Made by a program: the position numbers and the translations under genes
Virus record (IMG/VR): IMGVR_UViG_3300032797_000632
Coordinates: 1-64,000 of that record
Length of the DNA: 64,000 bases
Source of the DNA: a virus
Direction: 5' to 3' (one strand)
The notes under the pieces: model-generated
What the model was told of the DNA's origin: nothing
The model's input: the letters and a program-made list of their open reading frames with translations, nothing else
Database searches by the model: none
In this document: in pieces, positions 179 to 23,664 of the stretch
Layout of the letters: each line of letters begins with the position of its first letter
Numbering within the stretch: position 1 is the stretch's first letter

Positions 179-682
179 ATGGAGGATCGGGACAAGGTAA
201 AATTTGATGTCTGCATGGTCAGGCCAACCGATTTCCGATACTGGGGATTCGGAGCCCGCGGGAAGGGATATGGGGCCCAGGTCAAGGTGGAATTCATGTA
301 CGGAAAGGTTCCGAATAAAGGCACGCCGAGTCGCACGCATCGCAGAAGCATGGATTTCGGGCGGCTCATAGGTGCGAGGCACTACATCGATGGCAAGGTG
401 ATCGAGCATGGGAACAGTGGATACAGGTTTGTGTCCGTCGGGGTTGATCAGATGCTGGCAGAGGTGGCCCGGGCGGTCGAGGAGAGGCTGTTCGCCGATT
501 GGCCGTCTGCCTGTTCCGCAAGCGATGCGATCAAGCGGAGGCTTGCGGATTTGATCACGGACGGCGAGGCAGGCAAGGGAGATGCATCCGCCTATGTGGT
601 GTTTGGCCTAGTTCAACGGGCTGCGTTCGAGCGCCAGGCCCCGCCCGATTCCTCCCGGCCAAAGAGGATGATCACGCTGTGA
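179..682 (+). CDS. Hypothetical protein ending in the shared RPKRMITL motif
   Basis: 167-aa ORF with AAGGGA SD-like sequence; C-terminal motif shared with 10488-10991. Confidence 0.7.
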   Translation: MEDRDKVKFDVCMVRPTDFRYWGFGARGKGYGAQVKVEFMYGKVPNKGTPSRTHRRSMDFGRLIGARHYIDGKVIEHGNSGYRFVSVGVDQMLAEVARAVEERLFADWPSACSASDAIKRRLADLITDGEAGKGDASAYVVFGLVQRAAFERQAPPDSSRPKRMITL

Positions 683-710
683 CCGGCTCCCTTCGATGGG
701 AGTCCAATTG

Positions 711-720
711 GGGGTATAAT
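711..720 (+). promoter_or_regulatory. Putative -10 element (GGTATAAT) upstream of 738
   Basis: GGGGTATAAT followed by AAGGAGG SD; GGTATAAT also precedes genes at 19527 and 25771. Confidence 0.5.
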
Positions 721-737
721 AAAACAAGGAGGTAATC

Positions 738-1019
738 ATGCCGGAGGAGGAAAAGGGACAGCAGCCGATGGTCGATGCGATGCCGGAGTACATCGCATTG
801 CCCATGACCCTGATATTCGACAAGCGGGCTTTGGGGCGGGCGGTGGAGCGGGTCAAGGCCGAGGCCAAAAGGCACAAGTGGCATGCGAAGAGGATGGCGA
901 CCACTGCGGATTTCGCCGAGGCCATCCTGCAGGACCACCTATCAAAGTTCTTCGATTACGAGGCGTTCGACCCGCAGTCGGTGGCGCAGGCACTGAAAGC
1001 AGAGGGCTGGCTCGAATAG
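738..1019 (+). CDS. Hypothetical protein
   Basis: 93 aa, strong AAGGAGG SD. Confidence 0.75.
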   Translation: MPEEEKGQQPMVDAMPEYIALPMTLIFDKRALGRAVERVKAEAKRHKWHAKRMATTADFAEAILQDHLSKFFDYEAFDPQSVAQALKAEGWLE

Positions 1020-1097
1020 CGGGATTCCATAAGCCGGACAATGCACCATAGTGTATGAGATGGGCAAGGCATCTCCACAAACGTGGAGGGAGGAGTT

Positions 1098-1943
1098 ATG
1101 AAAAGCAAAGCGAAATGGTTATTGGGTTTGGGACTTGGTTTTCTGGCCGGGGTGGTGTTCGTAATCTCCTGCGGCCAGGAGGCCCGATCAACCGCCGAGG
1201 AAATTCTCAAGGCAATCGGGATTACCTTCGACCCTACGGGCACCGACCTGGCGGCACAGAACCTCCAGGACCTGGGGACGGAATTGGACACCAGGATCGT
1301 CGCCCTGGAAACGAAGATCGGCACTCCCGCGAACCCGGATACCGATCTCTCGGGGAGGGTTACGGCTCTGGAAACTCGAATGACCAATATAGAAACCATG
1401 CTGGTTCAGGTTCAGGGAATTGTTATCCAAATAGCAAGTATTGTAGCTACGCCCTCCCCCAATTCATTGATTCTTGAATGTTTGGAAAAGGAACTGGCAA
1501 GCTATCAGGTTCCGGCAGATTGGGTGGTTCTCGACAGCCAGACCCATGTCAATGGGTCGGTAACCTTGAGTCTGCCGTGTTCAATGTCCCTCCGATATTT
1601 GAAGATTGAAGCCACTTACACGAGTGACATGGGCCAAGTTAATATCTACGAAATCCAGGCTTTTGGCCCGGATGCACCGACCACGAACCTCGCCCTAAAT
1701 AAAACGGCGACCGCCATCTCCTCCCAGGGAGGGGACGCCGGGGGCCAAGGCCCGAGGATGGCGGTGGATGGAAATGTGGGAAGTCGATGGGCGAGTGAGA
1801 GGGGTTCGCCTGGCCCGGCGAGCGTGGCCGTTCCCCACTGGATAATGGTGGACCTCGGGCAGAACTATCAAGTCAACCAGATCGTGATCAACTCCGGGAA
1901 TTACAACGAGGATTACACCCTGCTGGGAAAGCGGGGCGAGTGA
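1098..1943 (+). CDS. Putative lipoprotein with coiled coil and discoidin (F5/8 type C)-like domain
   Basis: Signal peptide with ISC lipobox-like site; NLALNKTATA..S, AVDGN..SRWAS and WIMVDLG discoidin motifs. Confidence 0.75.
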   Translation: MKSKAKWLLGLGLGFLAGVVFVISCGQEARSTAEEILKAIGITFDPTGTDLAAQNLQDLGTELDTRIVALETKIGTPANPDTDLSGRVTALETRMTNIETMLVQVQGIVIQIASIVATPSPNSLILECLEKELASYQVPADWVVLDSQTHVNGSVTLSLPCSMSLRYLKIEATYTSDMGQVNIYEIQAFGPDAPTTNLALNKTATAISSQGGDAGGQGPRMAVDGNVGSRWASERGSPGPASVAVPHWIMVDLGQNYQVNQIVINSGNYNEDYTLLGKRGE

Positions 1944-2345
1944 CAGATTTCCACGATTGTGGATCGGGGGGCGGTAATCCGCACTGGATAGTCCTAGATT
2001 TCGGTGAGTCCCGGAGCATCGACGAGATAGCGGTAAACGCCGGGAGCTACGGGGGAGCTACATCGTCTACGGGCGGGCACCGTCCGGGTCCGATCCCTGC
2101 GGAAGCTGACGAAGAGGGGCCCATGGGAAAAGAGAAAAAACGCTCAGAACCGGAAAAATGCAAAAGAAACCCTCTGGGGGATGATCCGCTGGCCCGCACA
2201 GGAAGGCGAAAGTATCTGCCCGGGGATCTCTCGATCATAGATTTCTATTGCGGGCCGGGGAAGCAAACGGGGCCAAGGTTGGGCGATTCACGGCGAAAGG
2301 CCAGGCCATCGGAACCGGCCCGCATAAAAAAAACTAGGGGCGGAA

Positions 2346-2720
2346 GTGTTCGAAAGCAGACATGAGATCGTGATCGGCATGCTCAAGATGCATGCGAACA
2401 TCACCGTATCGTACAAGATCAAATCCCGCCCCTTTTATGAAATCACGGCGATACGGGCGTGGAAGGAGAGGGGCGGGAGGAGGAACGAATACCGGTGGCA
2501 CAAGCAGAGGGTCGGATACTGCTCTGGATGGGATCCCGACATCGTGGTGATGCGGGCGACTAGGCGCCGGCTTGGTGAATGGCATGGGCGTCGCCCCTGG
2601 CCCCGGCACCCTTGGTTCTGGGTTATGCTTGCGACCATCATGGCCCTGGCCGTGGCCAAGATCACATGGCGGAGGATCAGGCGGGGTCCCGGGTGGGAGA
2701 TGATGGAGGGGAGACAATGA
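2346..2720 (+). CDS. Hypothetical protein with one C-terminal TM helix
   Basis: 124-aa ORF; hydrophobic stretch WFWVMLATIMALAVA. Confidence 0.5.
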   Translation: MFESRHEIVIGMLKMHANITVSYKIKSRPFYEITAIRAWKERGGRRNEYRWHKQRVGYCSGWDPDIVVMRATRRRLGEWHGRRPWPRHPWFWVMLATIMALAVAKITWRRIRRGPGWEMMEGRQ

Positions 2721-3004
2721 GCGGAAGGGATTTTATCGATGAGGTTTATAAAATGGCCGAGGACGAGGGCCTCGAGGTGGTGGCGGGGGTGTTCGAGGGG
2801 GAGGGCCAGCCGATAGTCGTCTGCCGAACAGGCATAAAATTCGACCATGCCTTAGTCGTGGTGAATGAGATCATAAAATGCGTGGTGCTCGCCCTGCTCG
2901 AGGGAGGTAACGATGTGGAGGCTTTGAGGGGGGCGTGGCTTCACACCATCTCCCGGGGGATCGACGATGTCCACCGGGAGTGGAAGGAGAGCCGGGGGAA
3001 TTGA
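2717..3004 (+). CDS. Hypothetical protein
   Basis: ATGA overlap with the upstream gene; GGAGGG SD. Confidence 0.65.
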   Translation: MSGRDFIDEVYKMAEDEGLEVVAGVFEGEGQPIVVCRTGIKFDHALVVVNEIIKCVVLALLEGGNDVEALRGAWLHTISRGIDDVHREWKESRGN

Positions 3005-3281
3005 AAAGGTCCTGCCCGAACTGCACAAGCTACCGGCGCCCGTCCAACCTTCCCCTGCTGGATCTGTACCCGCTCCAGTTTCTCTGCATGGGGAAAAACA
3101 AGGTGATGGGGCTCCCGCTCCCGGACGGGTGCGAGCTTTACTATCCGGCATTTGAGAACCAGCACAAGGCGGCGGCGAGGCGGAGGGAGTGGAGGTTGTC
3201 GGGAAAATCAAGGAGGCCCGGGGAGGCCCGGGGCGGGGATCGCAGAGTCGCAAAGAATGAGAAGGCGGGAAAGAGGATGAG

Positions 3282-4568
3282 ATGAGCAACAAGACAAGCA
3301 CAAACGCAGATGCCCGGCGTGCGGTTTCTAAATTTACGAAGGTTAGGACAAAATCTAAATTGAGCATAATCCTCTCCGGGGGAGTGTCCGTCGGCCTAGG
3401 AACGGACTGTATTTTCGACTACATAAGAAACCTGATCCTGCACCGGATATTCGCCGATGGCGGGGTAGTTTGCCAGCGGTGCATGATTTTCTGGGTGGCG
3501 GAGGACAAAACCGAGGCCCGCTTGAACGCAAGCGAGAGGATGGCCACAGGGGGGGGGCGGTGCGACGATTCGCCTCCGAAACCGGTCTCCGACCAAGGGG
3601 ATAAGTCGCTGGATGAGGCCCATCCCCGGCTGTTCGGGTATATGCGTTCCGCAGGACTGGAGCCGGCGTTCATGTCGCAGGATGCTGCCTTGCTCTCCTG
3701 CCCCGGGAGGGTGGTGGTCGTCGTCAAGAAGGAAGGGGCACAGATGATTGTCCACGAGTACGGGGGCGGGGATCCGGTGCTGGATGCGGACCGGATCCTC
3801 GAGGCGGCCCCCGAGCTCCGGCCAACCCCCATAATGGAGGAGCAGGAAGACGCCATTTTCATCAATGCCATGATGATCGGCGAGACGGTCAGCTTCAAGC
3901 GACTGAAGCTTTACGCAAAGCCCCTAGCCTCCTATCTGGAGACAAACTACTGCGGGGAGGTGGTCGGGGCTACCAACAGACTGATAAGGCAGATCGGGAC
4001 GAGGGAGTGCATTGGCCGGACGGTCATCCTGCAGGGCCCCCCGGGGACGGGCAAGTCCTACTGGATCAAGGGTCTGGCGAAGACGCTCGAGAAGATGTAT
4101 GTCCCGGTGCTAGTGGTCCAGCCGATGAATTTCTTCTCCAACCCGATGCCCTACCTCCACACCGTGGATAGGTACGGGGAGGACGGCGGGAGGCTGATGT
4201 TCATATTCGAGGACTGCGGGAGGATGCTGGCTACCGAGTCACAGATGGACATGCCCCAGGTAGAGTCCCTGCTCCTCAACATAAGCGACGGCCTGCTGGG
4301 ATCCGGCAGGGAGGACATATTCGTTTTCACCTTCAACTTCGAGGTGGGGTCGGTCATCCCGGCCATCCAGCGTCCGGGTCGTCTCCTAGCGGGGATCAGT
4401 TTCGCACCCCTAAACGGGGACGAGATTGCGAGGTTTGTGGCCTCGATCGGGGGCGATGGGCATGGATGGGGCGGGGAGAGCAAGACGCTGGCCGAACTTT
4501 ATTCGATGATCCTTCTCGGCCAAGGCGAGGAGGCCCCCCGGAAAAAGGCTATGGGATTCTTGAAATGA
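3282..4568 (+). CDS. AAA+ ATPase
   Basis: Walker A GPPGTGKS; Walker B MFIFEDC; LLNISDGL; Arg finger RPGRL; C-terminal MGF. Confidence 0.88.
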   Translation: MSNKTSTNADARRAVSKFTKVRTKSKLSIILSGGVSVGLGTDCIFDYIRNLILHRIFADGGVVCQRCMIFWVAEDKTEARLNASERMATGGGRCDDSPPKPVSDQGDKSLDEAHPRLFGYMRSAGLEPAFMSQDAALLSCPGRVVVVVKKEGAQMIVHEYGGGDPVLDADRILEAAPELRPTPIMEEQEDAIFINAMMIGETVSFKRLKLYAKPLASYLETNYCGEVVGATNRLIRQIGTRECIGRTVILQGPPGTGKSYWIKGLAKTLEKMYVPVLVVQPMNFFSNPMPYLHTVDRYGEDGGRLMFIFEDCGRMLATESQMDMPQVESLLLNISDGLLGSGREDIFVFTFNFEVGSVIPAIQRPGRLLAGISFAPLNGDEIARFVASIGGDGHGWGGESKTLAELYSMILLGQGEEAPRKKAMGFLK

Positions 4569-4637
4569 TCCGGATAGAAGACATAAAGAAACGAAGCGAT
4601 AAAATGATCGCCGTAAACGAGAAGAAAGGGAGGAGAG

Positions 4638-4967
4638 ATGAGAAAATGGGAAAAGGTAAAGTACGAGGCTGACATCGCCATTTTCGGCCTTGGGGCCCTC
4701 GTGGTCGTGGTCGCCGGGATCGCCCAGGGATTCAGGGCAAGCGAGGTCGTGGTGGCCGCATGCTTCCTCGCCCTGACGCTGGTCAAGGCGTTCACCTATG
4801 TCGCCCGGGAAAAACAGATGGGCGGGAAGGGACGGAAGCCGAAACCGATCAAAGAGGGGATCGAGAAAAAAGGCGGGGTGAATGAAAAGCCGGAAGCCAT
4901 GCCGGCCCCGCTCTTCGAAAAACGGGAAGGTTCGGATACTTCCCCGGCACAACCCGAAAAGATATAA
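4638..4967 (+). CDS. Small membrane protein (2 TM)
   Basis: Two hydrophobic helices, basic tail, GGAGGAG SD. Confidence 0.65.
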   Translation: MRKWEKVKYEADIAIFGLGALVVVVAGIAQGFRASEVVVAACFLALTLVKAFTYVAREKQMGGKGRKPKPIKEGIEKKGGVNEKPEAMPAPLFEKREGSDTSPAQPEKI

Positions 4968-5045
4968 ATATTTAGCCCCCGTGGTGCAAGGGACTTTGCG
5001 GGTGCTTATAAGGGGAATCAGTACCAAGTAGACCATAGGACTAAC

Positions 5046-5570
5046 ATGGCGATCCGAAGAGTTGTCGAAGCTTTTAATATGGGATACAGGGTGACTAAAG
5101 ACGGAAGGGTTGTTTCGCCTGAGCAAAAGGAGAGAAAATTAAGCGTCGGACCTCAAGGATATTATACTTTTACCGTGCGAATTAGAGGTAAAAATCGGGA
5201 GGCATGGACCATCAAAGTGCATAGATTGGTCGCTTACCAAAAGTATGGTGAGGCACTTTATGAACCCGGAATTGAGGTCAGGCACTTAGACAATAATAAG
5301 TTAAATAATTGCGATGACAATATTTCCATAGGAACACACCCTGAAAACATGATGGACATACCAAGAGGAAAAAGAATATCCATTGCCAAAAATGCATCGA
5401 GTAAATCCATTTGTTTTACAAGGAAGTTAACCATAGAAAAGCTAAAAGAATTCAGAACAGATAGAAAATTGGGCATGTCCTATCATGAGCTTATGAGGAA
5501 ATACAATTTATCTAAAGATACGGTTTCGTATATTGTAAATGGCAAAACTTATGGGGATGTATCTCAATAG
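5046..5570 (+). CDS. Free-standing HNH homing endonuclease with C-terminal HTH
   Basis: VHRLVA...EVRHLDNNKLNN...GTHPENM motif; AT-rich compared with flanks. Confidence 0.88.
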   Translation: MAIRRVVEAFNMGYRVTKDGRVVSPEQKERKLSVGPQGYYTFTVRIRGKNREAWTIKVHRLVAYQKYGEALYEPGIEVRHLDNNKLNNCDDNISIGTHPENMMDIPRGKRISIAKNASSKSICFTRKLTIEKLKEFRTDRKLGMSYHELMRKYNLSKDTVSYIVNGKTYGDVSQ

Positions 5571-5629
5571 GATAGAGAATTAGTTTCCTAAACTAAAAGT
5601 TGCAGGTTCGAGTCCTGTCATCCCCACCA
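5553..5629 (+). tRNA. tRNA-Arg(CCU) with encoded CCA
   Basis: Acceptor GGGGATG/CATCCCC-A-CCA; D stem TCTC/GAGA; anticodon stem TTAGT/ACTAA with loop TTCCTAA; T arm GCAGG-TTCGAGT-CCTGT. Confidence 0.93.
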
Positions 5630-5646
5630 TAAAAGGAAGGGCCTGA

Positions 5647-6090
5647 ATGGAAGAGTCTATGAATCACGCAGTGGTTGGGTTCATGTTTGACCCGCAAGGG
5701 AAGAATGTGGTCCTGATAAACAAAAACCGCCCCGAATGGCAGAGGGGGATGTGGAATGGCCCCGGGGGCAAGGTTCGGATGGGCCAGGAGAGTGCCCGCG
5801 AGGCGATGGCGAGGGAGTTCCGGGAGGAGGCGGGCGTGGACACCGACTCGAGCCAGTGGGTGATCGTCGTGGTGATGAATGGGGTCGACAAGGAAGGGAA
5901 AGAGTGGGCGATCACATTCATGTACTCCTGCGCCGAGCACGGGATCGAGGAGGCTAAGACGGTCACCGACGAGCGGGTCGAGGTATTTCCGGTCGGCAAA
6001 CTGCCCGACAATCTGGTGCGGGGCCTGAGGTGGATTATTCCCCTGTGCCTAGACAACATATATTTTCCATTGATGGTCATTTCAAAATAA
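5647..6090 (+). CDS. NUDIX hydrolase
   Basis: Nudix box GGKVRMGQESAREAMAREFREEAGV. Confidence 0.9.
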   Translation: MEESMNHAVVGFMFDPQGKNVVLINKNRPEWQRGMWNGPGGKVRMGQESAREAMAREFREEAGVDTDSSQWVIVVVMNGVDKEGKEWAITFMYSCAEHGIEEAKTVTDERVEVFPVGKLPDNLVRGLRWIIPLCLDNIYFPLMVISK

Positions 6091-6103
6091 GGAGGAGGAG
6101 ATC

Positions 6104-6361
6104 ATGGATCCGATCAAATGCAACATATGTAAGCTGCCGAACCAGCACTTCGCCTGGGTGGTCACGAGCGACCCGGCCAAGGCGTCGGCGGTGTGCCGGG
6201 AGTGCTTTGCCGATGGCATTCTGTTCCTCGAGGAGCTGGCGAAGTTTCTCGACGCTCTCAAGACCATATGCCCCGAGAGGCAGGTGACGGGGGAGGGGGC
6301 GAAGACCATCGGGGTGGCCGTGACGCTCCCCGAGTCCAAAGACCAGCCGGACAAGGGGTAG
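6104..6361 (+). CDS. Small zinc-finger protein
   Basis: CNIC...CREC; strong SD. Confidence 0.6.
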   Translation: MDPIKCNICKLPNQHFAWVVTSDPAKASAVCRECFADGILFLEELAKFLDALKTICPERQVTGEGAKTIGVAVTLPESKDQPDKG

Positions 6362-6363
6362 GT

Positions 6364-6738
6364 GTGGATCCCCGGCTGGTTTTTGTCTGCTCCCGGCTGG
6401 CGGGAGATATCCATCTTAATATCAGCCTGACCGCCCACCATTGCCGGTATGTGTTCCGGCAGGGGCTCGTGCCGGTGGCCCCCCACCTGTATCTCGGGAT
6501 GATCCTCGACGACAACAGGCCGGCGGAAAGGGAGATGGGCATCGGACTCGGCAGGGAGGTTATGAACCTCTGCTCCCAGTTCTGGGCGTTCCATGATGGC
6601 GGGTTGTCGTCCGGAATGCAGGACGACATCAACTATTGGATAGCGACGCTCGGCAGGGGAGGGGGAACCGTTAGACGGATCCGCTTCCGATGCGAGGGTT
6701 TTGGATCCCCGATCTACACCCCTGACGAGGCACCATAG
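6364..6738 (+). CDS. DUF4406/nucleoside deoxyribosyltransferase-like protein
   Basis: VFVCSRLAGD...PVAPHLY...REMGI...CSQFWAF...SSGMQ pattern. Confidence 0.7.
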   Translation: MDPRLVFVCSRLAGDIHLNISLTAHHCRYVFRQGLVPVAPHLYLGMILDDNRPAEREMGIGLGREVMNLCSQFWAFHDGGLSSGMQDDINYWIATLGRGGGTVRRIRFRCEGFGSPIYTPDEAP

Positions 6739-6759
6739 AATGCGAGGGAGGGAATAGCC

Positions 6760-7227
6760 ATGAGGACGAGGGATCAGATAGCAGAGTATTACAAGGGCAG
6801 AAAGAGGTGGGATACCCTCGGGTTTGAGGCCGAGGTTCTTCTGCCGTACCTGGACACGGAGCATCTCCGGCCATTCTGTAAGGAGGGGGCGGACCTGTCC
6901 AAGCATAGAGCACAGCCCCTGACCGAGCCGAGGGTGATCCGGGAGATGAAATCCTATATGGAGTTCGCCTGGGGCAAGGTCATCGACCACCGGGGGATAT
7001 CGGCGGGGAGGAGCGTCCAGAAGATGCGGGCCTGGCTCTGGCTTTTGGGGGACGATGAGCTGGTGTCCTTCTGCGACGACGAGAGAAACTACCCGCAGTA
7101 CGGGGCCCCCATATTGAGAAGGATATGCCAGAAATACAAGCTACCGATTCCGAAGGGGGAGATGGTGGACCGGATGGCCCGGGGGCTGGCCTGCCAGGCC
7201 GGGTGTGATATGGGGTGCGGGAGATGA
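6760..7227 (+). CDS. Hypothetical phage protein
   Basis: 155 aa; GGAGGG SD; follows a GCACCATAG element. Confidence 0.7.
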   Translation: MRTRDQIAEYYKGRKRWDTLGFEAEVLLPYLDTEHLRPFCKEGADLSKHRAQPLTEPRVIREMKSYMEFAWGKVIDHRGISAGRSVQKMRAWLWLLGDDELVSFCDDERNYPQYGAPILRRICQKYKLPIPKGEMVDRMARGLACQAGCDMGCGR

Positions 7228-7898
7228 GGCGCGACGGGGGCGAGGTCCTGATGGTGTCGTCTCTGCTGATCCGGAGGTGGTTCGCACGCCTAGAATTGAT
7301 ATTGTACCCGGTGCTTGTGGCCGTGATCGTCTCCATCGTATGGCTTGGATGGGAGGTTTCGAAGATCAAGGTGGAACTCAAGCCACCGGTCAAGGTCCAG
7401 CGGAGTGCGAACTTCGTCAATTTCATCCTCGAGGGGAATCCCAATTTGACCCCTGCAGAGGTGGATTTCATCTTGTCGATGGTCGACGCCGTGCACAAGG
7501 TCACCGGGATCAAGCAGGAGCTGTTGCTCGCCATCCCGAGGCGGGAGAGCGACTTCAAGCCGGAGGCGGTCAGCCCGACGGGGGCGATTGGGGTGTTGCA
7601 GGTCCATCCTGCGGCGTGGGCGGATGCCAGTGCGGACCTCGAGGATGGGATGCGATCCGGATATATGAAGTTCATCCACTATTATGCCCGGGAGAATAAC
7701 AACATCGTCCGGGCACTCATGAGTTATCTTTCGGGAAGCCCCGATGGGGTTCCCCGGGGGCGGGGGCAGAGGAAGGACAAGGAATGGGTCGAGAAGAAAA
7801 AGGCGGAGGCGCGAAGATATGTTCAGGATATCTTCGACTACGTCGCTAGGTTGGAGCGGGGAGAGTGGGCAATCCCGAAAAAATCAGGCGGGAAATAG
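7215..7898 (+). CDS. Membrane-anchored lytic transglycosylase (SLT)
   Basis: N-terminal TM; RESDFKPEAVSPTGAIGVLQV SLT motifs; ALMSY. Confidence 0.85.
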   Translation: MREMRRDGGEVLMVSSLLIRRWFARLELILYPVLVAVIVSIVWLGWEVSKIKVELKPPVKVQRSANFVNFILEGNPNLTPAEVDFILSMVDAVHKVTGIKQELLLAIPRRESDFKPEAVSPTGAIGVLQVHPAAWADASADLEDGMRSGYMKFIHYYARENNNIVRALMSYLSGSPDGVPRGRGQRKDKEWVEKKKAEARRYVQDIFDYVARLERGEWAIPKKSGGK

Positions 7899-8083
7899 GA
7901 TCCGAGAGTCGGAATATAAGCTCCAATTCGCACAGGGGTACATTTAAGAAGGGGGCCACGGCCCGCCTGACCGGGAAGCCCATGTCGGCGTGCCCCCACC
8001 GCAGGGACAATTCATTCTCGGCGGTCCATTACAAATACTGGAGGATGGGATGGGAGTCGGCAGACCGAAAAATTATGGGCTGA
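7865..8083 (+). CDS. Ribosome-modulation-factor-like small protein
   Basis: G..A..TGKPMSACPH...W..GW pattern. Confidence 0.5.
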   Translation: MGNPEKIRREIGSESRNISSNSHRGTFKKGATARLTGKPMSACPHRRDNSFSAVHYKYWRMGWESADRKIMG

Positions 8084-8100
8084 GATCCGGGCCGGAGACT

Positions 8101-8373
8101 ATGGAGGCCATAGCCTACGAGCCGTCGACCATAAGGGAAGAGATCGTCGGGCTATTCGAGTCGACGGGCTTGAGGATCGGGGAATACGCCCGGTTGGTGG
8201 GGATAAGCGACTCTTCGGTGAAGAACATTCTGACGGGGACAACCGCCCCGTCCGTCGAGGTTCTTCGCAAGCTGGCGATGTACCACAAGGTGGCGTTTCT
8301 GGTTCATGGCCGGCGCCGGATGATTACGGGCAGGTTCGAGTGCAAGGCCAAGGGAAACGGAAAGGGGGGATGA
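8101..8373 (+). CDS. XRE-family helix-turn-helix regulator
   Basis: EYARLVGISDSSVKNILTGTTAPSVEVLRKLA. Confidence 0.75.
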   Translation: MEAIAYEPSTIREEIVGLFESTGLRIGEYARLVGISDSSVKNILTGTTAPSVEVLRKLAMYHKVAFLVHGRRRMITGRFECKAKGNGKGG

Positions 8374-8852
8374 GGATGTTTGTGGGACTGGAGGCTCCTA
8401 GGGGGGCAAAGACGATCATCGTGGTGGCCATTCTGTTGATTGCGGGGACGGCCATCTCCGCAATGATCTTCGGTGTCGCCCGGCTCGCCGGGAGGAAGGA
8501 TCAGCCCCATTCCACAATCGTGGAAATATCGGCACCTGACCAGCATCCGGCCAAGGCCCCGGAAAAGACGCAGGCGGGGCGGGCTCCGGTCCCCGGGAAG
8601 GCCATAAGCCGGGAGGAACTCCACTTGCGGGTCCAACTGGATCTGTGCCTCATCCGCCTCGAGGAGCTTCGGGACAAAAGACCAAGGATTCCGGCTAGGC
8701 CGATGGATGCGGACGAGATTCTCGAGCGGACGGAGCTGGACAGGTGGTGGGATCGGAAGGAGGACGAGGTTCGGCAGGAATGTCTGCGCCTGAAAATGAT
8801 GGCCGAAAGGGCGGAGGGAAGGCATGGCGATAAACAAGCCCATTCTTACTAA
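8370..8852 (+). CDS. Membrane-anchored hypothetical protein
   Basis: N-terminal TM helix; ATGA overlap. Confidence 0.6.
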   Translation: MRMFVGLEAPRGAKTIIVVAILLIAGTAISAMIFGVARLAGRKDQPHSTIVEISAPDQHPAKAPEKTQAGRAPVPGKAISREELHLRVQLDLCLIRLEELRDKRPRIPARPMDADEILERTELDRWWDRKEDEVRQECLRLKMMAERAEGRHGDKQAHSY

Positions 8853-9321: not shown

Positions 9322-9632
9322 AGTTCGTAATCATGGAGGTGCTGACGGCGACGCTGGGGAGGATAATCAACGAGTATTGGGAGATCGAGGGGTTTGCGTC
9401 CCGCCATGAGTTTCTGGATTACTGGATCAAAATCCATCCCCGGAAGAAGTTCGTTCCGGGCCAGGTGGTGCACATGCATAGGTTCGTGGACGCCGATCCG
9501 GAGCGGACAGACAGGCGGACGGTGCGGATCCCGTTCAAGCCGGAGATGGCAGAGCTGGTGAGGGCGGGGAAAAAGACAGCAACAACTAGGACCCGCAGGA
9601 TGGGAGGCCCTGGTGATGTGTTCGAGGTTTAG
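9318..9632 (+). CDS. ASCH-domain protein, apparently circularly permuted
   Basis: GKKTATTR motif near the C-terminus; EGF.S..EF..W motif near the N-terminus. Confidence 0.7.
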   Translation: MKFVIMEVLTATLGRIINEYWEIEGFASRHEFLDYWIKIHPRKKFVPGQVVHMHRFVDADPERTDRRTVRIPFKPEMAELVRAGKKTATTRTRRMGGPGDVFEV

Positions 9633-16089: not shown

Positions 16090-16090
16090 A

Positions 16091-16654
16091 ATGCTCTGGA
16101 AGATAGGAAATGTTCTGATAAACCTTGCCGAGCAGAAATCTCTGCCGAGCCTCGAGGTTTCTTATCGCCAGGAGACGGATAACACCCTTATTTATTATGT
16201 CCGGGTGGTATGGCCGCCGGCACAGGATTGTTCTAGCGCCGCATACCTAGAAAATCGAGAGGATTGCAAGGTGTTTATTAATGTCCAAATGGAGGTAGAG
16301 CTTTTCACCCGTGCGGTGGCTTATGTGCACAATCCGTCTTTGCGCATCGGGGACAGCTTGATATCGAGGCGGGACCTTTTGAATGTCGTGTCGATAAAAA
16401 AATATCCGCTGGAGGGAAAGCATGTGTTTGCACTAAATTATCCGAATTCCCAATTAAGTATAAAGTGCGATTCCGAAAAAATCGCCGACGAACTCGAGGC
16501 CAAGTGTATGGAGGAAATATCCATCCTGCGGGACCCTGACCGGCTCCGGGGGGCGGTGATAATATCGATGTCCCGTGATAAAGATCAGCCCCCGGACAAG
16601 AGGCCGCTGCGAATGATAGACATGGAAGGCAGGGCGGTGCCCGATGGCGGTTAG
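16091..16654 (+). CDS. Hypothetical protein with RPLRMIDM motif
   Basis: 187-aa ORF; motif at 16601-16624. Confidence 0.65.
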   Translation: MLWKIGNVLINLAEQKSLPSLEVSYRQETDNTLIYYVRVVWPPAQDCSSAAYLENREDCKVFINVQMEVELFTRAVAYVHNPSLRIGDSLISRRDLLNVVSIKKYPLEGKHVFALNYPNSQLSIKCDSEKIADELEAKCMEEISILRDPDRLRGAVIISMSRDKDQPPDKRPLRMIDMEGRAVPDGG

Positions 16655-17018
16655 GCTGAGCGTCAAAACCGACCACCCCCATGGTCCGGTGCTGGTGGAC
16701 CAAAACGGGGAACCGGTCAGGGGGATAATGATAGAGCGCCTAGATATCAACGCACCCGCCCAGCGTTTTCATTACGGAAACGGGAAAGACGGAATGGTGA
16801 GAATATCCGAGAGGCTGGAGATCAAGGCGGAGATATTGATAGAGGATATTTACGATGACACCGAGAGCGGGGCGAAGGGATCCGGGGCACCGACCCCGAT
16901 GCATTGGAGCGGGAGGCCCCTGCGGATGATGGACATGGACTCCACGAATGTGGAATCGCCGAGCCCCGCCGAAGGCACCATAGACACAAAGGGAAAGGAG
17001 GGGGGAGATGATCATTAA
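16644..17018 (+). CDS. Hypothetical protein with GRPLRMMDM motif
   Basis: 124-aa ORF; motif at 16911-16937. Confidence 0.65.
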   Translation: MAVRLSVKTDHPHGPVLVDQNGEPVRGIMIERLDINAPAQRFHYGNGKDGMVRISERLEIKAEILIEDIYDDTESGAKGSGAPTPMHWSGRPLRMMDMDSTNVESPSPAEGTIDTKGKEGGDDH

Positions 17019-17493
17019 TTTTGACGGTCTGTGCGAGCCCGCCCGGCCCGGGGGGCCAAGGAACCCCGGGGGCGTGGCCGCCTACGGGTACCTGATAACC
17101 TCGGACGAGGGCATAGAGCTCGCTTGCGGGTGCGGGGTTGTGGGGGAGGGCGAGGGCATGACGAACAATGTCGGGGAGTATTTCGCCTTGCTCAAGGGCC
17201 TCGAGCGGGCCCTGCTGATAGCCCCGGAGGGGGCCCGCCCGCAGTTTTTGGTCCGGGGGGACTCGCAACTTGTGATAAACCAGATGTCGGGAAAGTGGCA
17301 GATCAAATCCGAGATGCTCGGGGCGATAGCCATCGAGATCCGGGAGCTGGTGGAGGGGGCGGAGATCAAATACGAGTGGGTTCCGCGCGAGCGGAACGCC
17401 GCTGCCGACTCGATGGCCAACGAGGCGTACCAGAAGTTTTTGAAGGGCAAGATGGTGCCGGATCGAATCAGGAAAGAGGGGGGCGAGAAGTGA
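17008..17493 (+). CDS. Ribonuclease HI-like protein
   Basis: FDG...NPG; TNNVGEY; GDSQLVINQ; WVPRERNAAADSMAN. Confidence 0.9.
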   Translation: MIINFDGLCEPARPGGPRNPGGVAAYGYLITSDEGIELACGCGVVGEGEGMTNNVGEYFALLKGLERALLIAPEGARPQFLVRGDSQLVINQMSGKWQIKSEMLGAIAIEIRELVEGAEIKYEWVPRERNAAADSMANEAYQKFLKGKMVPDRIRKEGGEK

Positions 17494-18140: not shown

Positions 18141-18743
18141 ATGGAAGCGGTGGGGATTGAGAAAAAAAGCGACGAGATGGTCGCCGGCTGGTTCAAGGAC
18201 CATGTGGTCAAGGAGCATGCGACCCAAAAGATCGGCATGGCGGGGCACGAGATCGAGTTGCTCATTTGGAAGCAACCCGGCACGAGGATATACCAGATCA
18301 ACTATCTCCGGATGGACAATGTCCTGATGGTCTCGGGGGATGTGGGGGAGGCGATCTACGCCTGGTCGGAGGTGAAAGACCTCCGGTGGATTTCGGGGCT
18401 GGACATCTCCTATTTCGCAAGCAAGTGCCAGGCATCGGAGAAGGGCAGTAAATACGAAGAATGGAACAGAGACCGGGCCAAAGAGATGCTCGAGGACCGT
18501 TTCAAATCAGATGAGGAAGATGGCGACAGAAAGACCCGCAAGATCGCCGAGGACCTCGGGGTGTGGCACGCCCTGTATTTCAGAGATGAATGGCTCATCT
18601 GGCTCGCACAGAATGGCCACGAGGTTTGGGAGGACCTCTCCGACCTGGCGGACATCGGGATGGAGGTCTCGCTCCGGTGCCGGTCACATCTGGCCGGACT
18701 GCGGATGGCGTTTGAAAGGATGGACAAGGCGGATGGGAAATAA
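18141..18743 (+). CDS. Hypothetical phage protein
   Basis: 200 aa; SD present. Confidence 0.7.
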   Translation: MEAVGIEKKSDEMVAGWFKDHVVKEHATQKIGMAGHEIELLIWKQPGTRIYQINYLRMDNVLMVSGDVGEAIYAWSEVKDLRWISGLDISYFASKCQASEKGSKYEEWNRDRAKEMLEDRFKSDEEDGDRKTRKIAEDLGVWHALYFRDEWLIWLAQNGHEVWEDLSDLADIGMEVSLRCRSHLAGLRMAFERMDKADGK

Positions 18744-19494
18744 AACCAAGATTGAGTATTGCGACGAGACGCTGAACATAGTGACCGGATGCAACCGGGG
18801 ATGTCCTTACTGCTACGCACGAAAGCTCGCCAATGGCCGGCTCAAGGACCGGTATCTCAACGGGGGCGGGATCCTCCTGACGGACAACCCGGCGGACCCC
18901 TTCGCCCCGAGGTTCTGGCCACAAAGGCTCGACGCCAGACTGCCGGGAAAGCCGTCGGTCATATTCCTGAACGACATGAGCGATGCCTGGGGAGAATGGG
19001 TGCCGGATCATGTGATCCGCCAGATGCTCGATTTCTGCCGGAAGAACATCGGCCATTCGTTTCTGCATTTGACCAAGAACCCGAAACGATACTGGATATT
19101 CAAGGATGCAATACCCCCCAATTGCTGGCTGGGGACGACCATAACCGGCGGGAGCGAGGGGCGGGACGAAGACCTGCGGGATTCCGCCGGCAAACACAGA
19201 AAATTCATATCCTTTGAGCCCCTGCTGGACAATGTGGTGGCCAACGGCGTGAGGCTCAGCGGGATCGACTGGGTCATAATCGGGGCCCAGACCAAGCCGG
19301 ATGTCCAGCCCCACACGGTATGGGTCAAGGCCATTCTGGAAAAGACGCAGAGAATGGGGATCCCGGTTTTCATGAAGGACAACCTCCGCCTGCCCTGGAT
19401 CAACGCCCAAAGGAAGAACCCGGCTAGGGAGGACTTGGGGAAAATCTCCTCCTTGATAAAGAACTGGAATAAAAAGACGCCGAGGACAAGGTGA
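18733..19494 (+). CDS. DUF5131 (phage gp37/gp68) radical-SAM-like protein
   Basis: TKIEY...VTGCNRGCPYCYAR; FLNDMSD; LTKNP; FISFEPLL; DWVIIGA. Confidence 0.88.
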   Translation: MGNKTKIEYCDETLNIVTGCNRGCPYCYARKLANGRLKDRYLNGGGILLTDNPADPFAPRFWPQRLDARLPGKPSVIFLNDMSDAWGEWVPDHVIRQMLDFCRKNIGHSFLHLTKNPKRYWIFKDAIPPNCWLGTTITGGSEGRDEDLRDSAGKHRKFISFEPLLDNVVANGVRLSGIDWVIIGAQTKPDVQPHTVWVKAILEKTQRMGIPVFMKDNLRLPWINAQRKNPAREDLGKISSLIKNWNKKTPRTR

Positions 19495-19526: not shown

Positions 19527-20156
19527 ATGCCGGAGGATAAAGAAGACAGCAAGTGGCGCCTGATAGCACGCCTTTTCGGGCTGGTGGCGGAGATGGGCTT
19601 GGAGCCGGACCGCTTTGCGGACGGGGGGGGATGGAACCCGGGGCAAAAGGAAAGATGCATCGTGGAGATGCAAAGCATGGTCAATCGCATGATGGCGATG
19701 AAAGAGCCGAGGATCAACCGAATGTTCGACGATGCATTCATAATTCTTGAGGGGGTTCGAAACGGAATAGTGAGCCGGGCGATGGCCAAGAGCATGGTGG
19801 ACGCCCTGCGGGATCGGGTGGATTTAGTTACAAATGCCATAAATGACGAGAGGGAACGATCGGCAAATCCCAGGAATCGGCAGCCGGATGGCTATCTTCA
19901 TCCCGGGGTCATCTTTCGGGAGGTGAACGATGTGTCTTCCGAGCCGGAGTCCCCCACCATCCCCGCCGTGGTGACCAGATCGGCGGAGATTATGGTCAGG
20001 ACGCCGGAGGGCCGGCGACGCGCCCATGTGGACGCCGAGGGGCAACTGATCATCGGGGAGCTGGTGGATCCAAAGGTGCCCGAGCCGGCCAAGGAGGACC
20101 CGGGCCCGAGATCCACCGTGATCCCGGGCAGGCTCCTGAGGAGGATCGATGCCTGA
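19527..20156 (+). CDS. Hypothetical protein ending GRLLRRIDA; possibly translated from a leaderless mRNA
   Basis: TGGTATAAT ends 7 nt before the ATG; no SD. Confidence 0.65.
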   Translation: MPEDKEDSKWRLIARLFGLVAEMGLEPDRFADGGGWNPGQKERCIVEMQSMVNRMMAMKEPRINRMFDDAFIILEGVRNGIVSRAMAKSMVDALRDRVDLVTNAINDERERSANPRNRQPDGYLHPGVIFREVNDVSSEPESPTIPAVVTRSAEIMVRTPEGRRRAHVDAEGQLIIGELVDPKVPEPAKEDPGPRSTVIPGRLLRRIDA

Positions 20157-20710: not shown

Positions 20711-20977
20711 ATGGACACGACGAAGGATGCCAAGAGGTACAGCGAGGAGGCGAAGCGGAGGGTTTACATGAGGCAGCTTACGAGAACGATGGAGGCGATT
20801 CGCAGGAGCGGTTACAAGCTGGCGATCCTGCCGGTGGCGGCGCTGGAGGAGGAAGGCATCATGGCCGGGAGGTCGGACGGCCACCAGATAGGCAGGCTCA
20901 CCAGGGCGGTCTGCAAGAGGCGGAGGATGCGGCAGATCGCCGACGAGTCGAGGCGGATCAACCGCCGCATCCATTAG
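20711..20977 (+). CDS. Basic hypothetical protein
   Basis: 88 aa; GGAGG SD; follows GCACCATAG. Confidence 0.55.
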   Translation: MDTTKDAKRYSEEAKRRVYMRQLTRTMEAIRRSGYKLAILPVAALEEEGIMAGRSDGHQIGRLTRAVCKRRRMRQIADESRRINRRIH

Positions 20978-20985: not shown

Positions 20986-21162
20986 ATGGATCTGAGGGAG
21001 TCGATTTCCAAGAAGCTGGGGGAGGTCAGGAGGGTCTGCCAAGAGTGCAAGACCTGGAATAAAGATCAAGGGTGCGAGTCGCCGGACAATTGTCCGTCGC
21101 ACATCTCCCCGCAGGCGTTAATCATCATGTTCGAGGAGATTCTGCACCAGGCGGAGGGATAG
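20986..21162 (+). CDS. Small Cys-rich protein (58 aa, absent from the ORF track)
   Basis: AGGAGGAGG SD; MDLRESISKK...CQEC...C....C. Confidence 0.55.
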   Translation: MDLRESISKKLGEVRRVCQECKTWNKDQGCESPDNCPSHISPQALIIMFEEILHQAEG

Positions 21163-21558
21163 ATGGAGGAGCCGAAGGGCAGGCCAGATGTTCTGCCTGG
21201 CAACACGGTCAAGGTGGAGACCGCCCAATGCGAGAACTGCTATGTCACCCTGAACAAGCTGGGCGACAAGGAGTACGAGATCTGGCTCCGGCACGGAAAA
21301 ATGGGGGGGTGCGAGCAGGCCCACAAGCACGCCATCGGGGTGCTCATGTCGGTCGCCCTGCAGGCGGGGGTTTCCCCGGAGGAAATAGCTAGAAAGCTCA
21401 TGAGCATCGGGTGTCCGCATCCTAACCCATGGGGCAAGAAACCAAACAAATCATGCATTGACGGGATAGCGAAGGCCGTGCTGAAAGCGATGGGAAGAGA
21501 CGAGAATGTCAAAGAGCGAGTTCAACACGATCCCGGGCCTGCTGATCCACATACATAG
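21163..21558 (+). CDS. Stand-alone TSCPD domain (class II ribonucleotide reductase C-terminal-like)
   Basis: YVTLN...GKMGGC...MSVALQAGVSPEEI..KL.SI.C...SCIDGIAKA. Confidence 0.8.
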   Translation: MEEPKGRPDVLPGNTVKVETAQCENCYVTLNKLGDKEYEIWLRHGKMGGCEQAHKHAIGVLMSVALQAGVSPEEIARKLMSIGCPHPNPWGKKPNKSCIDGIAKAVLKAMGRDENVKERVQHDPGPADPHT

Positions 21559-22606
21559 GCTCGAGGTGCGGGCCGTGGCCACGCCCACGGCCATGAGGAC
21601 GCTCGCCATCCAGGCGTGCTCCATGATGGGCCTGTCCGAACTCGAGCCGGAGCTGGTCCGGATGAGCCCCTGGTGGTGCCTGCCACGGGAGGCCAAAGTG
21701 TCATCGGACGGCAGGGCCCTGCGGATGATCGACATGGGATCCGACCCGGTGCCGGCCTCCGGAAAGCCGCCCGTCGAGCTGGGGGCGATCATGGGGTGGA
21801 GCATCGGGCTCGTGGCCGACGACCAGCTTCCGCCGCACATCGTTCTGGTCAAATGCCGGGGTCCGATAGAACGCTACATCATGGGGGTGCTCGACCACCT
21901 TGCACAGCCGGAGGCCAAGGACGGCGGGGCCGAGATGATATGCCCGCGGTGCGGGGAGTCTGCCCCAATGCCGGGCGACAAATTGCCCGACGGCACCCCT
22001 GCCCCCTGGAAGTGTGGAAATAAGTGGTGCGGATATTATCCTGCAGGGGCCTACAGTATTGGACCGTCAGATTCAAGCCGGGTGTACCCTAGTGCCGCCT
22101 GTGGGGTGGTATATGGGACGACGACAAATGTTCCATTAACGCCAAGCTTCGGGGGGATGTTGCCGGTGGACAACTACGGGGTCGTGCGAGGGAATGGGGT
22201 AGGCACGCCCCCACCTACCCGGGAGGAACCCGGGGAGGAACAAGGCCCGGGGCGAATCAACATCGGCGGGCTGACCGCCGAGAATGCGGCGGAAAGGATA
22301 TGGCGACATTTTATCGAGCATACCCATTCAGAGATGTCGCTGTCCGCATACCGTGAGCAGGTGGTGACGGCGACCATGAGAAAGCGTGATCTTACTGATC
22401 AACAGAAGCACGAGATAATCAACCGCTTCGACCTCTTGGCGATCTCTCCCACAGGATGGAATGGCCTGGGAAGAGGAAGGCGAGGAAGAAGAGGGCACGA
22501 GCGGAGGATGATTGCGGCCACTCAGCAGACGGAGGCCCCCCCGAGCTCCAACGCCTCCAGACGCTGGTGGCGGGGCAACAGGGGATCGAACGGAAATGAG
22601 CGTTAA
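21506..22606 (+). CDS. Modular hypothetical protein with internal GRALRMIDM motif and zinc ribbon
   Basis: 366 aa; CPRC...CGNKWC. Confidence 0.55.
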   Translation: MSKSEFNTIPGLLIHIHRLEVRAVATPTAMRTLAIQACSMMGLSELEPELVRMSPWWCLPREAKVSSDGRALRMIDMGSDPVPASGKPPVELGAIMGWSIGLVADDQLPPHIVLVKCRGPIERYIMGVLDHLAQPEAKDGGAEMICPRCGESAPMPGDKLPDGTPAPWKCGNKWCGYYPAGAYSIGPSDSSRVYPSAACGVVYGTTTNVPLTPSFGGMLPVDNYGVVRGNGVGTPPPTREEPGEEQGPGRINIGGLTAENAAERIWRHFIEHTHSEMSLSAYREQVVTATMRKRDLTDQQKHEIINRFDLLAISPTGWNGLGRGRRGRRGHERRMIAATQQTEAPPSSNASRRWWRGNRGSNGNER

Positions 22607-23303
22607 GATAAGCATCGAGTCCGGTCCGGACTCCCTGATCATCGGCGGCCTGAAAGCCGAATCCGACTACAGGCATGTCGAGCAGGTCATGAGAAACATC
22701 TCCAACAAGAGCAATCATAGCCTAGTCTACCGGCGCCGGTTCGAGGAGGGGATCATCGAGATAAGGCAAAAGATGGGATGCGAATTCAGAACTCTGGTGG
22801 AGGAGGCGGTCAGGTCGATGATCCGCAGGTCCATCGTGGCGGTGGTCGAGGAGTTCGAGATGGGGCCGCTGGCCGACAGGCTTCGCCTCGGGAAGCCGGT
22901 TTACGATCCGGGGGCCGCCAGCGTATGGCTCGTGCGGGATCCCGACACTGAATCAATTAGGTACCTTGAGGAACACGAGTACATGCTTGACGCCCAAACC
23001 GGCACCATAATATTTACGGGGACGGCGGGCAAGGTGAGTGGCTCCCTGACAGTGAGATATTTCACGGAGATGGAGTCCTTAGGGGATCCGGACAGGATGC
23101 GGGAGGCTAAGGAGTACTACGAGTACAGTGATGATCGTGGCGAAACTTGGAGAGAATATATTTATAAGGAAACGAGGAAAGAGGATTATGAGGCCCGCCC
23201 GGAGAAGCAACGACCAGAGGACCCATCCCCTCCGGCACCTGCGGATCCGGAGATGTCGGAGCGATTCGGACGCCCTCTGCGCCGAATAATGCTGGACAAG
23301 TAG
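22596..23303 (+). CDS. Hypothetical protein ending GRPLRRIMLDK
   Basis: ORF start chosen at MSVKIS. Confidence 0.6.
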   Translation: MSVKISIESGPDSLIIGGLKAESDYRHVEQVMRNISNKSNHSLVYRRRFEEGIIEIRQKMGCEFRTLVEEAVRSMIRRSIVAVVEEFEMGPLADRLRLGKPVYDPGAASVWLVRDPDTESIRYLEEHEYMLDAQTGTIIFTGTAGKVSGSLTVRYFTEMESLGDPDRMREAKEYYEYSDDRGETWREYIYKETRKEDYEARPEKQRPEDPSPPAPADPEMSERFGRPLRRIMLDK

Positions 23304-23304
23304 C

Positions 23305-23664
23305 ATGCCTGCGGTGCAATTCAACGGAGAGGGGAGAACGGTGATTGTGGACCAACTCACCGTTTCCCAGTTCGAGGCACTCGAGAGGCTGTTGTTCGAC
23401 TTTGCGACGATCAACGGAAACATCTCGCTTTCGACCCGCAGGGAGATGCAGGTCGGCAAGATGGTAATCCACATACCGGAATATGGGGATTACAGGAAGG
23501 TGGAGAGATTCATAATGACCGTGGTCACGGACGACGACATCTGCCCCACGCCGGAGATCAGGAAAAACTGGGAGAAAAGGCACGCCGTCCAGACATTCAG
23601 GGATGGCAGGCCAATGAGAAGGATCGACATGGATTCCACGGATGTGGAAAAACCGAAGGAATAG
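23305..23664 (+). CDS. Hypothetical protein with GRPMRRIDM motif
   Basis: 119-aa ORF. Confidence 0.65.
   Translation: MPAVQFNGEGRTVIVDQLTVSQFEALERLLFDFATINGNISLSTRREMQVGKMVIHIPEYGDYRKVERFIMTVVTDDDICPTPEIRKNWEKRHAVQTFRDGRPMRRIDMDSTDVEKPKE

Follow-up and report, generated by a model that had tools for sequence, protein, structure and literature searches.

Replication, proteolysis and the networks of chaperones are organised by short docking peptides that gather many proteins on a common hub. The SSB tail, HbYX, the tail of SspB and clamp-binding motifs are examples. Cdc48/p97 and the proteasomal ATPases make use of docking tails such as HbYX; the tail of p97 is read by PUB and PUL, and an arginine-rich motif, VBM, is known as well. 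HbYX and its variant GQYL (Hydrophobic-Tyr-X or Gln-Tyr-Leu) reside at the extreme C-terminus, the partner being a peptidase ring. The IXI peptide of small heat-shock proteins (sHSPs) binds to a groove of the alpha-crystallin domain and is used for self-assembly of the sHSPs and, in eukaryotes, by partner proteins. For SspB, binding of the tail to the N domain of ClpX is described in the literature (PMC9963277), and a DUF2997-ycf35-fed7 cluster is listed for cyanobacteria (PMC4284462). Here we describe a short peptide recurring in unrelated proteins of a phage known from the IMG/VR virus record IMGVR_UViG_3300032797_000632, and its relation to an AAA ATPase module encoded by the same record. 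The record comprises 126,141 bp and is estimated to be 64% complete; its first 64 kb (positions 1 to 64,000) are called the window in the following.

Occurrence of the motif and selection on the peptide

A sequence-only reading of the window had listed eight copies of the peptide. By a six-frame scan all of them were located on the plus strand, in frame with long open reading frames (ORFs), at positions 656, 10965, 16601, 16914, 20130, 21713, 23271 and 23608, counted from the first Arg; for five of these sites the coordinates given earlier begin one codon upstream, at the Gly. Two further sites were found. The ninth, GRVKRRIEL (142-165 from the first Arg), terminates a 5'-open ORF (1-168), while the tenth, REKRRIDMNPTAN at position 101276 of the record, lies beyond the window and forms the end of a Cdc48-like AAA ATPase. 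Genes were predicted with our own codon-usage gene caller, which placed 166 genes on the plus strand and three on the minus strand (169 in total); all nine window sites reside within ORFs accepted by it. The motif is spelled G-R-P-[LMK]-R-[RM]-[IM]-x-[LM] in this phage, its more general form being two basic residues followed by hydrophobic-x-hydrophobic at a flexible end.

Enrichment was assessed by 200 per-protein shuffles of the 169-protein set. The expression R[PLAV][KRLM]R[RM][IM] occurred nine times, whereas the shuffles gave 0.15 on average and never more than 2 (an enrichment of approximately 60-fold); for the looser expression R..R[RM][IM].[ALMIV], 12 occurrences stood against an average of 0.77 and at most 4 in the shuffles. 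With a self-trained matrix, ten sites scored at least 21.8 bits and the next best site 10.0 bits. In agreement with the placement near the C-terminus noticed before, the motif started at most 18 residues from the end in eight of the ten proteins; in one protein the distance was 34 residues, and in one (gene 21506-22606) the copy lies inside the 366-residue protein, at residue 70. The Pro-rich linker also claimed by the sequence-only reading was corroborated in part: Pro accounts for 13.5% of the 200 pooled residues upstream of the motifs and for 5.0% of the proteome, but only three of the ten carriers drive this enrichment. The original observation is confirmed and is larger than first noted.

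Selection acts on the peptide, not on the DNA, as had been proposed from differing synonymous codons. Where copies share an amino acid, the codon was shared in 78 of 201 cases, 69.1 being predicted by codon usage, and the similarity of third codon positions (0.514) was below that of the first two (0.598). DNA identity between the copies amounted to 0.57 in the motif and to approximately 0.29-0.30 in the flanks. Furthermore, the few close variants of the proteins in public data kept the motif and differed in neighbouring tail residues.

The nine carriers of the window

All carriers are encoded on the plus strand, and they are termed early on account of the gene content of their region, the timing being assumed. 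In the first (ORF 1-168) the tail extends from 139 to 165 if counted from the Gly. The second (179-682, 167 amino acids) ends in RPKRMITL (656-679), and a cluster mate with two differences retained this tail. The third (10488-10991, 167 amino acids), located immediately 3' of the SSB gene, ends in RPRRMITL (10965-10988). In the fourth (16091-16654, 187 amino acids) nine residues follow the motif RPLRMIDM (16601-16624); a variant of 88% identity (P0002) kept DKRPLRMIDM, and seven of the nine downstream residues were changed. The fifth (16644-17018, 124 amino acids) contains GRPLRMMDM (16911-16937) and then 26 residues. Its variant P0283 exhibited seven differences, six of them just after the motif and none in GRPLRMMDMDSTN. 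The sixth (19527-20156, 209 amino acids) ends in GRLLRRIDA (20127-20153) after a Pro-rich stretch. The seventh (21506-22606, 366 amino acids), a predicted gene model, harbors the internal copy GRALRMIDM (21710-21736) and a weaker second site, HERRMIAA, near its C-terminus. The eighth (22596-23303, 235 amino acids) ends in GRPLRRIMLDK (23268-23300), which follows a Pro/acidic linker, and in the ninth (23305-23664, 119 amino acids) the motif GRPMRRIDM (23605-23631) is followed by ten residues.

The carriers are unrelated to each other, as the sequence-only reading had stated. None of the nine matched a Pfam or PHROG family, and an all-against-all BLASTP search yielded no similarity except for 18 residues around the motif of the carriers 16644 and 23305. 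Searches for relatives were similarly poor: none of carrier 22596 was found among viral contigs, none of carrier 19527 among metagenome contigs and, among 5.8 billion proteins, only near-identical ones of carrier 16091. The ESM Atlas gave no lead on carrier 22596 (best feature score 0.80, structural TM at most 0.40). With gene 18712-19494 as bait, three distant loci were obtained, none of which contained the motif pattern in a plausible ORF. The carriers remain ORFans.

Three weaker sites on the plus strand may be degenerate or additional carriers. GTVRRIRF (6664-6687) lies 16 residues before the end of ORF 6364-6738, both ORF and site being uncertain; HGRRRMITG (8308-8331) resides near the C-terminus of ORF 7990-8373, and RINRRIH (20954-20974) is the end of ORF 20711-20977.

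The AAA module of the phage

The tenth site belongs to an AAA ATPase (99860-101317 of the record) that resembles Cdc48/p97 and whose first ATPase domain is degenerate; it matched PF00004 (E 7.9e-25) and phrog_8638 (E 5.4e-84). In its AlphaFold model, whose mean pLDDT is 79.5, both halves align with the D1-D2 domains of p97, Cdc48 and Rix7 (Foldseek E 3e-20), and the last 16 residues (470-485) are disordered (pLDDT below 50). Four module genes follow directly downstream, those for DUF1257 and DUF2997 standing next to the AAA gene. The first of them (101344-101739) encodes a protein of 131 residues that was assigned to DUF1257 via its orthologues: it aligns with orthologues from 25 ORFs, and 15 of 21 aligned orthologues match PF06868 (DUF1257). 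It is followed by genes for a DUF2997 protein (101755-101952, E 1e-15), a 69-residue protein without a Pfam match (101933-102142) and a DUF3150 protein (102172-103074; PF11348, E 1.8e-23). The end of the latter, GRYKRAIWMD, fits the window pattern G-R-x-x-R-x-I-x-M. The 69-residue protein and its orthologues in 16 loci exhibit a conserved end of their own (N-[PQK]-W-C-G); one subgroup of them contains a Cys-rich CxxCxxC segment and the other one does not.

A common docking tag had been suggested by the sequence-only reading with the AAA ATPase encoded at 3282 as a possible hub. The idea of the tag fits the data, since the phage AAA and DUF3150 proteins bear the same tail, which is a family tail across phages and bacteria (see below). 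The named hub was not borne out: the ATPase at 3282 belongs to another AAA family and lacks the tail, and the two are not conserved together, the relevant ATPase being the one at 99860-101317 that itself ends in the tail. No evidence was obtained for RNA polymerase, which had been named as another partner.

The tail in related viruses and in the DUF3150 family

Relatives of the AAA protein were detected in 27 IMG/VR loci, at 32-47% identity and with G+C contents of 22-57%, and what they have in common with the phage is limited to the five module genes. Twelve of the 27 AAA ORFs end in a strict tail (e.g., GKRRVQL) and six more in RR[VIL]-x (RRRIN, RRVE and the like), the AT-rich ones being looser and basic-aliphatic. 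Of the viral DUF3150 orthologues, 14 of 15 end in [ST]-G-x-Y-[KR]-R-x-[ILV]-[DE]-[LM]; one such end, SGNYKRMIDLS, is nearly letter-identical to GRPLRMIDM of the window.

To more distant DUF3150 proteins the survey was extended by an exhaustive profile-free search, which recovered 1,544 relatives; the best 149 representatives of clusters at 50% identity were inspected. At the C-terminus 93 of the 149 fit the tail expression, compared to eight at pseudo-ends placed 30 residues upstream, and [YFWLI]xRx[IVLMF] was present within the last 20 residues of 110, compared to seven at the pseudo-ends. The family consensus is T-G-x-Y-[KR]-R-[KR]-I-x-L. A matrix built from 90 foreign DUF3150 tails was then applied to the 169-protein set. 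Its top six out of approximately 37,000 positions were ORF 1-168 (17.2 bits, the best match), carrier 22596 (12.5 bits), the phage's own DUF3150 protein, carrier 23305 (10.7 bits), ORF 6364 (10.3 bits, at the uncertain site mentioned above) and carrier 19527. All six lie near C-termini, and four window carriers as well as the own DUF3150 protein are among them. Carriers lacking Gly at position 0 or having Met at position 5 scored lower. Since a matrix from foreign DUF3150 tails picks the window carriers, we conclude, at the level of sequence, that the window peptide is the family tail of the module in the spelling of this phage, copied onto unrelated proteins.

Further viral loci contained more than one tail. 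In L016 and L029, loci of AT-rich phages, the AAA gene is followed by genes for two to four small proteins ending in the spelling of the respective phage: KRR[RK]I[FI]S[VI]KTL.EL beside the AAA end RRNITYIQKTNH in one example, and KRKISILG beside KRKVSKITSLG in a second one. The module is also present in cultured Aeromonas and Pseudomonas phages, the latter being members of Samunavirus. Aeromonas phage HJ05 encodes an AAA protein of 28% identity and five motif-like tails, and many of its proteins, the portal protein among them, have Arg-rich C-termini; out of ten Arg-tailed HJ05 proteins, Pfam named only the portal protein and an RNase H/ligase-like protein. With DUF3150, one match was obtained among cultured phages, a plasmid-like Salmonella entry, and a locus search using two single DUF3150 representatives found nothing.

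Just upstream of its AAA module, the 110-kb AT-rich viral contig L016 contains a large array of paralogues (459-9789 and 16301-17209), in which about 25 ORFs in tandem, each coding for 73-136 residues, have a common C-terminal pattern, A.EW[IL]ES..[IL]..K[LM]. Import into a phage nucleus or targeting to the capsid was considered as a role of the tail and rejected: the related records that contain the module are small, at 43-76 kb and an estimated completeness of 56-84%, and yet tailed, and bacterial chromosomes carry the system too.

The tail in bacterial genomes and on plasmids

In bacterial genomes and metagenome-assembled genomes (MAGs), 540 AAA relatives were found, of which the best 80 loci were kept. 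Nine were dropped due to short flanks; the other 71, in which the AAA end was complete and the downstream sequence measured 1.5 kb or more, were evaluated. DUF1257, DUF2997 or both adjoined the AAA gene in 21 of 23 loci whose AAA protein bears the tail, compared to 14 of 48 loci without it (Fisher p = 6e-7, not corrected for phylogeny). DUF3150 is absent from these cellular loci, and therefore the tail belongs to the AAA-DUF1257-DUF2997 core. The association of the tail with these neighbours favours a binding site inside the module.

Cellular loci also revealed tailed partner proteins. AAA proteins of gut and rumen bacteria end in SRGGRTLDF and are preceded by one to eight helix-hairpin-helix (PF12836) paralogues ending in ER-x-[IVL]-D-[LFI], and a Thermodesulfobacteriota MAG encodes a third tail-bearing protein with the end FTYRRAIDLS. 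Judged by their letters, the partner proteins repeat the tail spelling of the AAA protein itself. Loci whose AAA protein has an NPF-type tail contained no partner with a tail of that type. Tandem helix-hairpin-helix arrays were seen in L108 (2284-7326) and in the AAA/DUF2997 loci L093, L106, L116, L126, L128, L130, L131, L137 and L138.

On IncC and Pseudomonas plasmids, DUF3150 is instead accompanied by a MoxR ATPase together with a VWA protein, and it has an acidic-aromatic end (DYFF or EEFCL) that is common to its neighbours Bet, Exo and a hypothetical protein. As the plasmid DUF3150 with another ATPase carries another tail, the tail type follows the associated machine and not the kind of host. 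In the Yersinia ruckeri IncC plasmid pYR1 (79840-92550), the MoxR-AAA/SSB/Bet/Exo/DUF3150/VWA cluster includes a 302-amino-acid hypothetical protein ending in DHFF, Bet in GSYY, Exo in TFYW and DUF3150 in GDYFF; the version on a Pseudomonas putida plasmid is EFCL, AFCL and AFCV. The acidic-aromatic ends seem to represent a second code based on shared tails, one that recalls the tail of SSB.

Proposed function of the tail

The reading that we consider probable on balance is that the peptide acts as a conserved C-terminal docking tail, by which its bearers would be tethered to one site in the AAA module. Besides AAA and DUF3150, at least nine unrelated ORFan proteins of the early region would have acquired this tail, and each of them would be held by a single binding site inside the module. 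A receptor there is favoured because the tail type follows the machine. Since AAA itself bears the tail, the simplest receptor candidates are DUF2997 and DUF1257, conserved members without a tail and the likeliest docking site; a pocket of the AAA ring would be the alternative. The carriers might be clients delivered to the unfoldase, or adaptors that supply it with targets of their own. The motif, its conservation at the protein level, its identity with the family tail of the module and its association with the module neighbours were observed directly; from these we infer the binding, its place and the fate of the carriers.

Several points weigh against the docking tail. No tool demonstrated a partner binding it. 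The AAA protein carries the tail itself, which makes a simple degron read by AAA awkward and the receptor a guess, and the tail resembles those of two host proteins, IbpA and SspB. The 131-residue protein alone misses the Pfam DUF1257 family, and its model (pLDDT 79.7) has no recognisable peptide-binding fold, the best matches (VIA, Z 6.0; Foldseek E above 0.01 against the PDB) being at noise level. In five whole related records (43-76 kb) clear tails were present only on AAA and DUF3150, one of these records (G005) containing two further ORFs with tail-like ends, QRRIVLEGGT and RDGRRMIVTNPKR; the spread to many proteins is therefore a trait of particular lineages. Among bacteria, 14 of the 48 tail-less AAA proteins still have DUF1257 or DUF2997 as neighbours, MAG contigs may be phage DNA, and a general test for a tail dialect within loci was not significant (25 of 105 in own loci, 98 of 525 in controls, score at least 18). 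The expressions used for the enrichment were written post hoc, after the data had been seen, and the gene calls are those of our own caller. A complex model of two copies of E. coli ClpX 1-60, the phage AAA protein and the 47-residue tail of carrier 22596 gave scores of 0.26 and 0.19 against a mark of 0.32; it was run without controls and counts neither way.

A bolder version, which we regard as rather doubtful, is that the tail serves as a portable address code for a Cdc48-like unfoldase of phages and bacteria. Any protein gaining about nine residues would then become a client or an adaptor. The nine ORFans would be target-specific adaptors, each seizing a host protein (of defence or housekeeping, for instance) and passing it to the unfoldase of the phage for inactivation, and the helix-hairpin-helix arrays would be the cellular version. 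If true, this would be the counterpart, in viruses of prokaryotes, of eukaryotic viruses hijacking p97 or the adaptors of ubiquitin ligases. Likewise, carriers that serve the phage unfoldase as adaptors would represent a new mode of host takeover.

The AAA module is widespread, with more than 540 sites in bacterial genomes and 27 viral contigs encoding relatives of the AAA protein, and no functional study of it was found. The tail peptide offers a direct experimental handle on the partner and the function of the module, and by means of the tail the clients of the module could be listed in any genome from sequence alone. For the nine ORFan proteins of the early region it is the first functional clue.

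Alternative receptors and explanations

The sequence-only reading had pointed to the IXI motif of sHSPs. The tail would then mimic an IXI-type peptide, occupy the beta4-beta8 groove that the alpha-crystallin domain forms in a host sHSP, and recruit the carriers and AAA to sHSP assemblies. The resemblance is real: E. coli IbpA ends in EAKKPRRIEIN, with two basic residues and then I-x-I a few residues from the end, IbpB contains QRIAIS, and this pattern matches KRRIEL, KRRIEM, RPRRMITL and the family consensus [KR]R[KR][ILV]x[LIV]. As sHSPs are encoded in 13 of 14 control genomes, such a partner would also suit the wide host range of the module. However, an HSP20 domain (PF00011) was found neither in the 126-kb record (64% complete) nor in four related viral records and phage HJ05. 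Because the 126-kb record contains neither HSP20 nor a ClpX zinc-finger domain or ClpP, the partner would have to be a host protein in this case as well as in the one considered next. Moreover, the likeness to IXI leaves unexplained that the AAA tail tracks its DUF1257 and DUF2997 neighbours. On plasmids from the same kind of hosts, a different ATPase comes with a different tail type of DUF3150, and several spellings, among them the AAA ends RRRIN and GRRVE, misfit IXI. We therefore consider sHSP mimicry unlikely.

Hardly more promising is a tether of the SspB type, in which the zinc-binding domain at the N-terminus of a host ClpX would hold the tail and the carriers would be adaptors, self-delivering substrates or competitors of ClpXP. 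E. coli SspB ends in DDEPPQPPRGGRPALRVVK / PPRGGRPALRVVK after an acidic, Pro-rich linker, and RGGRPxLRV[VIM]K is kept in 118 of 121 SspB sequences (E. coli and 120 listed homologues, all enterobacterial). The match of this tail to GRPLRRIML and GRPLRMIDM is partial and comprises G-R-P, L-R and the subsequent aliphatic residues, and the architecture of a folded domain, a disordered Pro/acidic linker and a short terminal peptide appears alike. Yet the likeness in G-R-P is peculiar to the spelling of this phage, the family consensus with its T-G-x-Y start being much less SspB-like, and the spacing of the hydrophobic residues differs, which is i, i+2 in the module tail. In addition, the module tail tracks the module neighbours, bacteria included, and the motif may be internal or be followed by up to 26 residues. 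With only enterobacterial homologues listed, the natural range of the SspB tail is narrowly sampled. Taken together, we think a ClpX tether improbable.

A generic basic tail for nucleic acid, membrane or the AAA pore, acting without a specific docking site as an AT-hook-like or arginine-rich anchor or as an unstructured tag for the initiation of threading, has even less in its favour. The tails are arginine-rich, partners elsewhere are DNA-binding helix-hairpin-helix proteins, DUF3150 stands beside recombination genes, and HJ05 has its many Arg-rich C-termini, that of the portal protein included. But the hydrophobic positions and their spacing are conserved as much as the arginines, acidic and polar residues are tolerated between them, and the spellings are lineage-specific, all of which argues for a shaped protein site rather than for charge alone; we thus judge this explanation very improbable.

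The last alternative is that the peptide reflects a repeat in the DNA (a promoter, or a signal for ribosome binding or recombination) or a pattern due to chance. In its favour one may cite that several sites are at gene ends adjoining the start of the next gene. It is essentially excluded and already largely refuted by codon sharing at the level of codon usage, by third codon positions being the least conserved, by the enrichment over shuffles and by the recurrence of the peptide in relatives with G+C contents from 22 to 57%.

Other features of the record

Near-identical phage DNA was not present in the phage collection searched. Two of the three minus-strand gene calls are TnpB-like ORFs (51648-52712 in the window and 80147-81205 of the record) of 78.5% identity over 354 residues; no relative of the TnpB gene, which was used as a host clue, was found among genome contigs. 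A close FtsZ homologue is encoded at 44914-45849 on the plus strand (Tubulin domain, E 4.6e-30; TIGR00065 ftsZ, E 6.5e-59, below the cut-off of that model) and has no obvious C-terminal partner-binding peptide. The module region is flanked by genes for two paralogous HARE-HTH proteins outside the window (103086-103955 and 115687-116478 of the record; 59% identity over 71 residues), after which there are SbcD-like and SbcC-like genes, judged from the N-terminal sequence only.

Comparison with known systems

Addressing a hub by a short peptide is well known (SSB, HbYX, SspB, IXI), but we found no paper describing this system and its peptide: the literature found on DUF3150, DUF2997, DUF1257, Ycf46 together with phage or Ycf35, and tail motifs of phage AAA proteins consisted of gene lists and unrelated work, without a description of a shared tail. 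The nearest set is that of Ycf46 (AAA), Ycf35 (DUF1257) and DUF2997 in cyanobacteria and plastids, Ycf46 being what we take to be the name of this AAA family. It comprises the same families, i.e., a two-lobed AAA protein of PF00004, DUF2997 and DUF1257, the last matched here by 15 of 21 orthologues, and on mobile elements DUF3150 is added to them. In the literature found its genes are merely listed, and neither the shared tail nor its spread is described.

The tail of SspB is a short peptide on a disordered Pro/acidic linker that tethers a protein to an AAA+ unfoldase, as the phage tail would, and the two are partly alike in their letters (GRPALRVVK of SspB, GRPLRRIML of the phage). Unlike SspB, it is the ATPase of the phage module itself that bears the tail; the family consensus differs, and the 126-kb record contains no ClpX or ClpP gene. 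With the IXI motif (KKPRRIEIN of IbpA), the tail shares basic residues followed by [IVL]-x-[IVL] at a flexible C-terminus. The carriers differ from sHSPs in that they lack an alpha-crystallin domain, the 126-kb record contains no sHSP gene and the tail tracks DUF1257 and DUF2997.

Docking on Cdc48/p97 is similar in that a Cdc48-like ATPase has a disordered C-terminal tail and partners use short linear motifs. It differs in the one peptide common to the phage ATPase and its partners, an arrangement that is not known for p97. In contrast to HbYX and GQYL, none of the ten tails has a penultimate Tyr, no peptidase partner was found, and ClpP is missing from the 126-kb record.

The present analysis adds the nine ORFan carriers of the early region, the link of the AAA tail with DUF1257 and DUF2997 in bacteria, the helix-hairpin-helix arrays and the contrasting DUF3150 tail of plasmids. 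A parallel is offered by the SSB tail (DDDIPF), one short C-terminal peptide that gathers many unrelated proteins; the SSB protein of this phage ends in EDIPF. In the case of SSB, it is the hub that bears the tail and the clients that read it, and this tail is acidic, whereas here the presumed clients bear the tail, which is basic.

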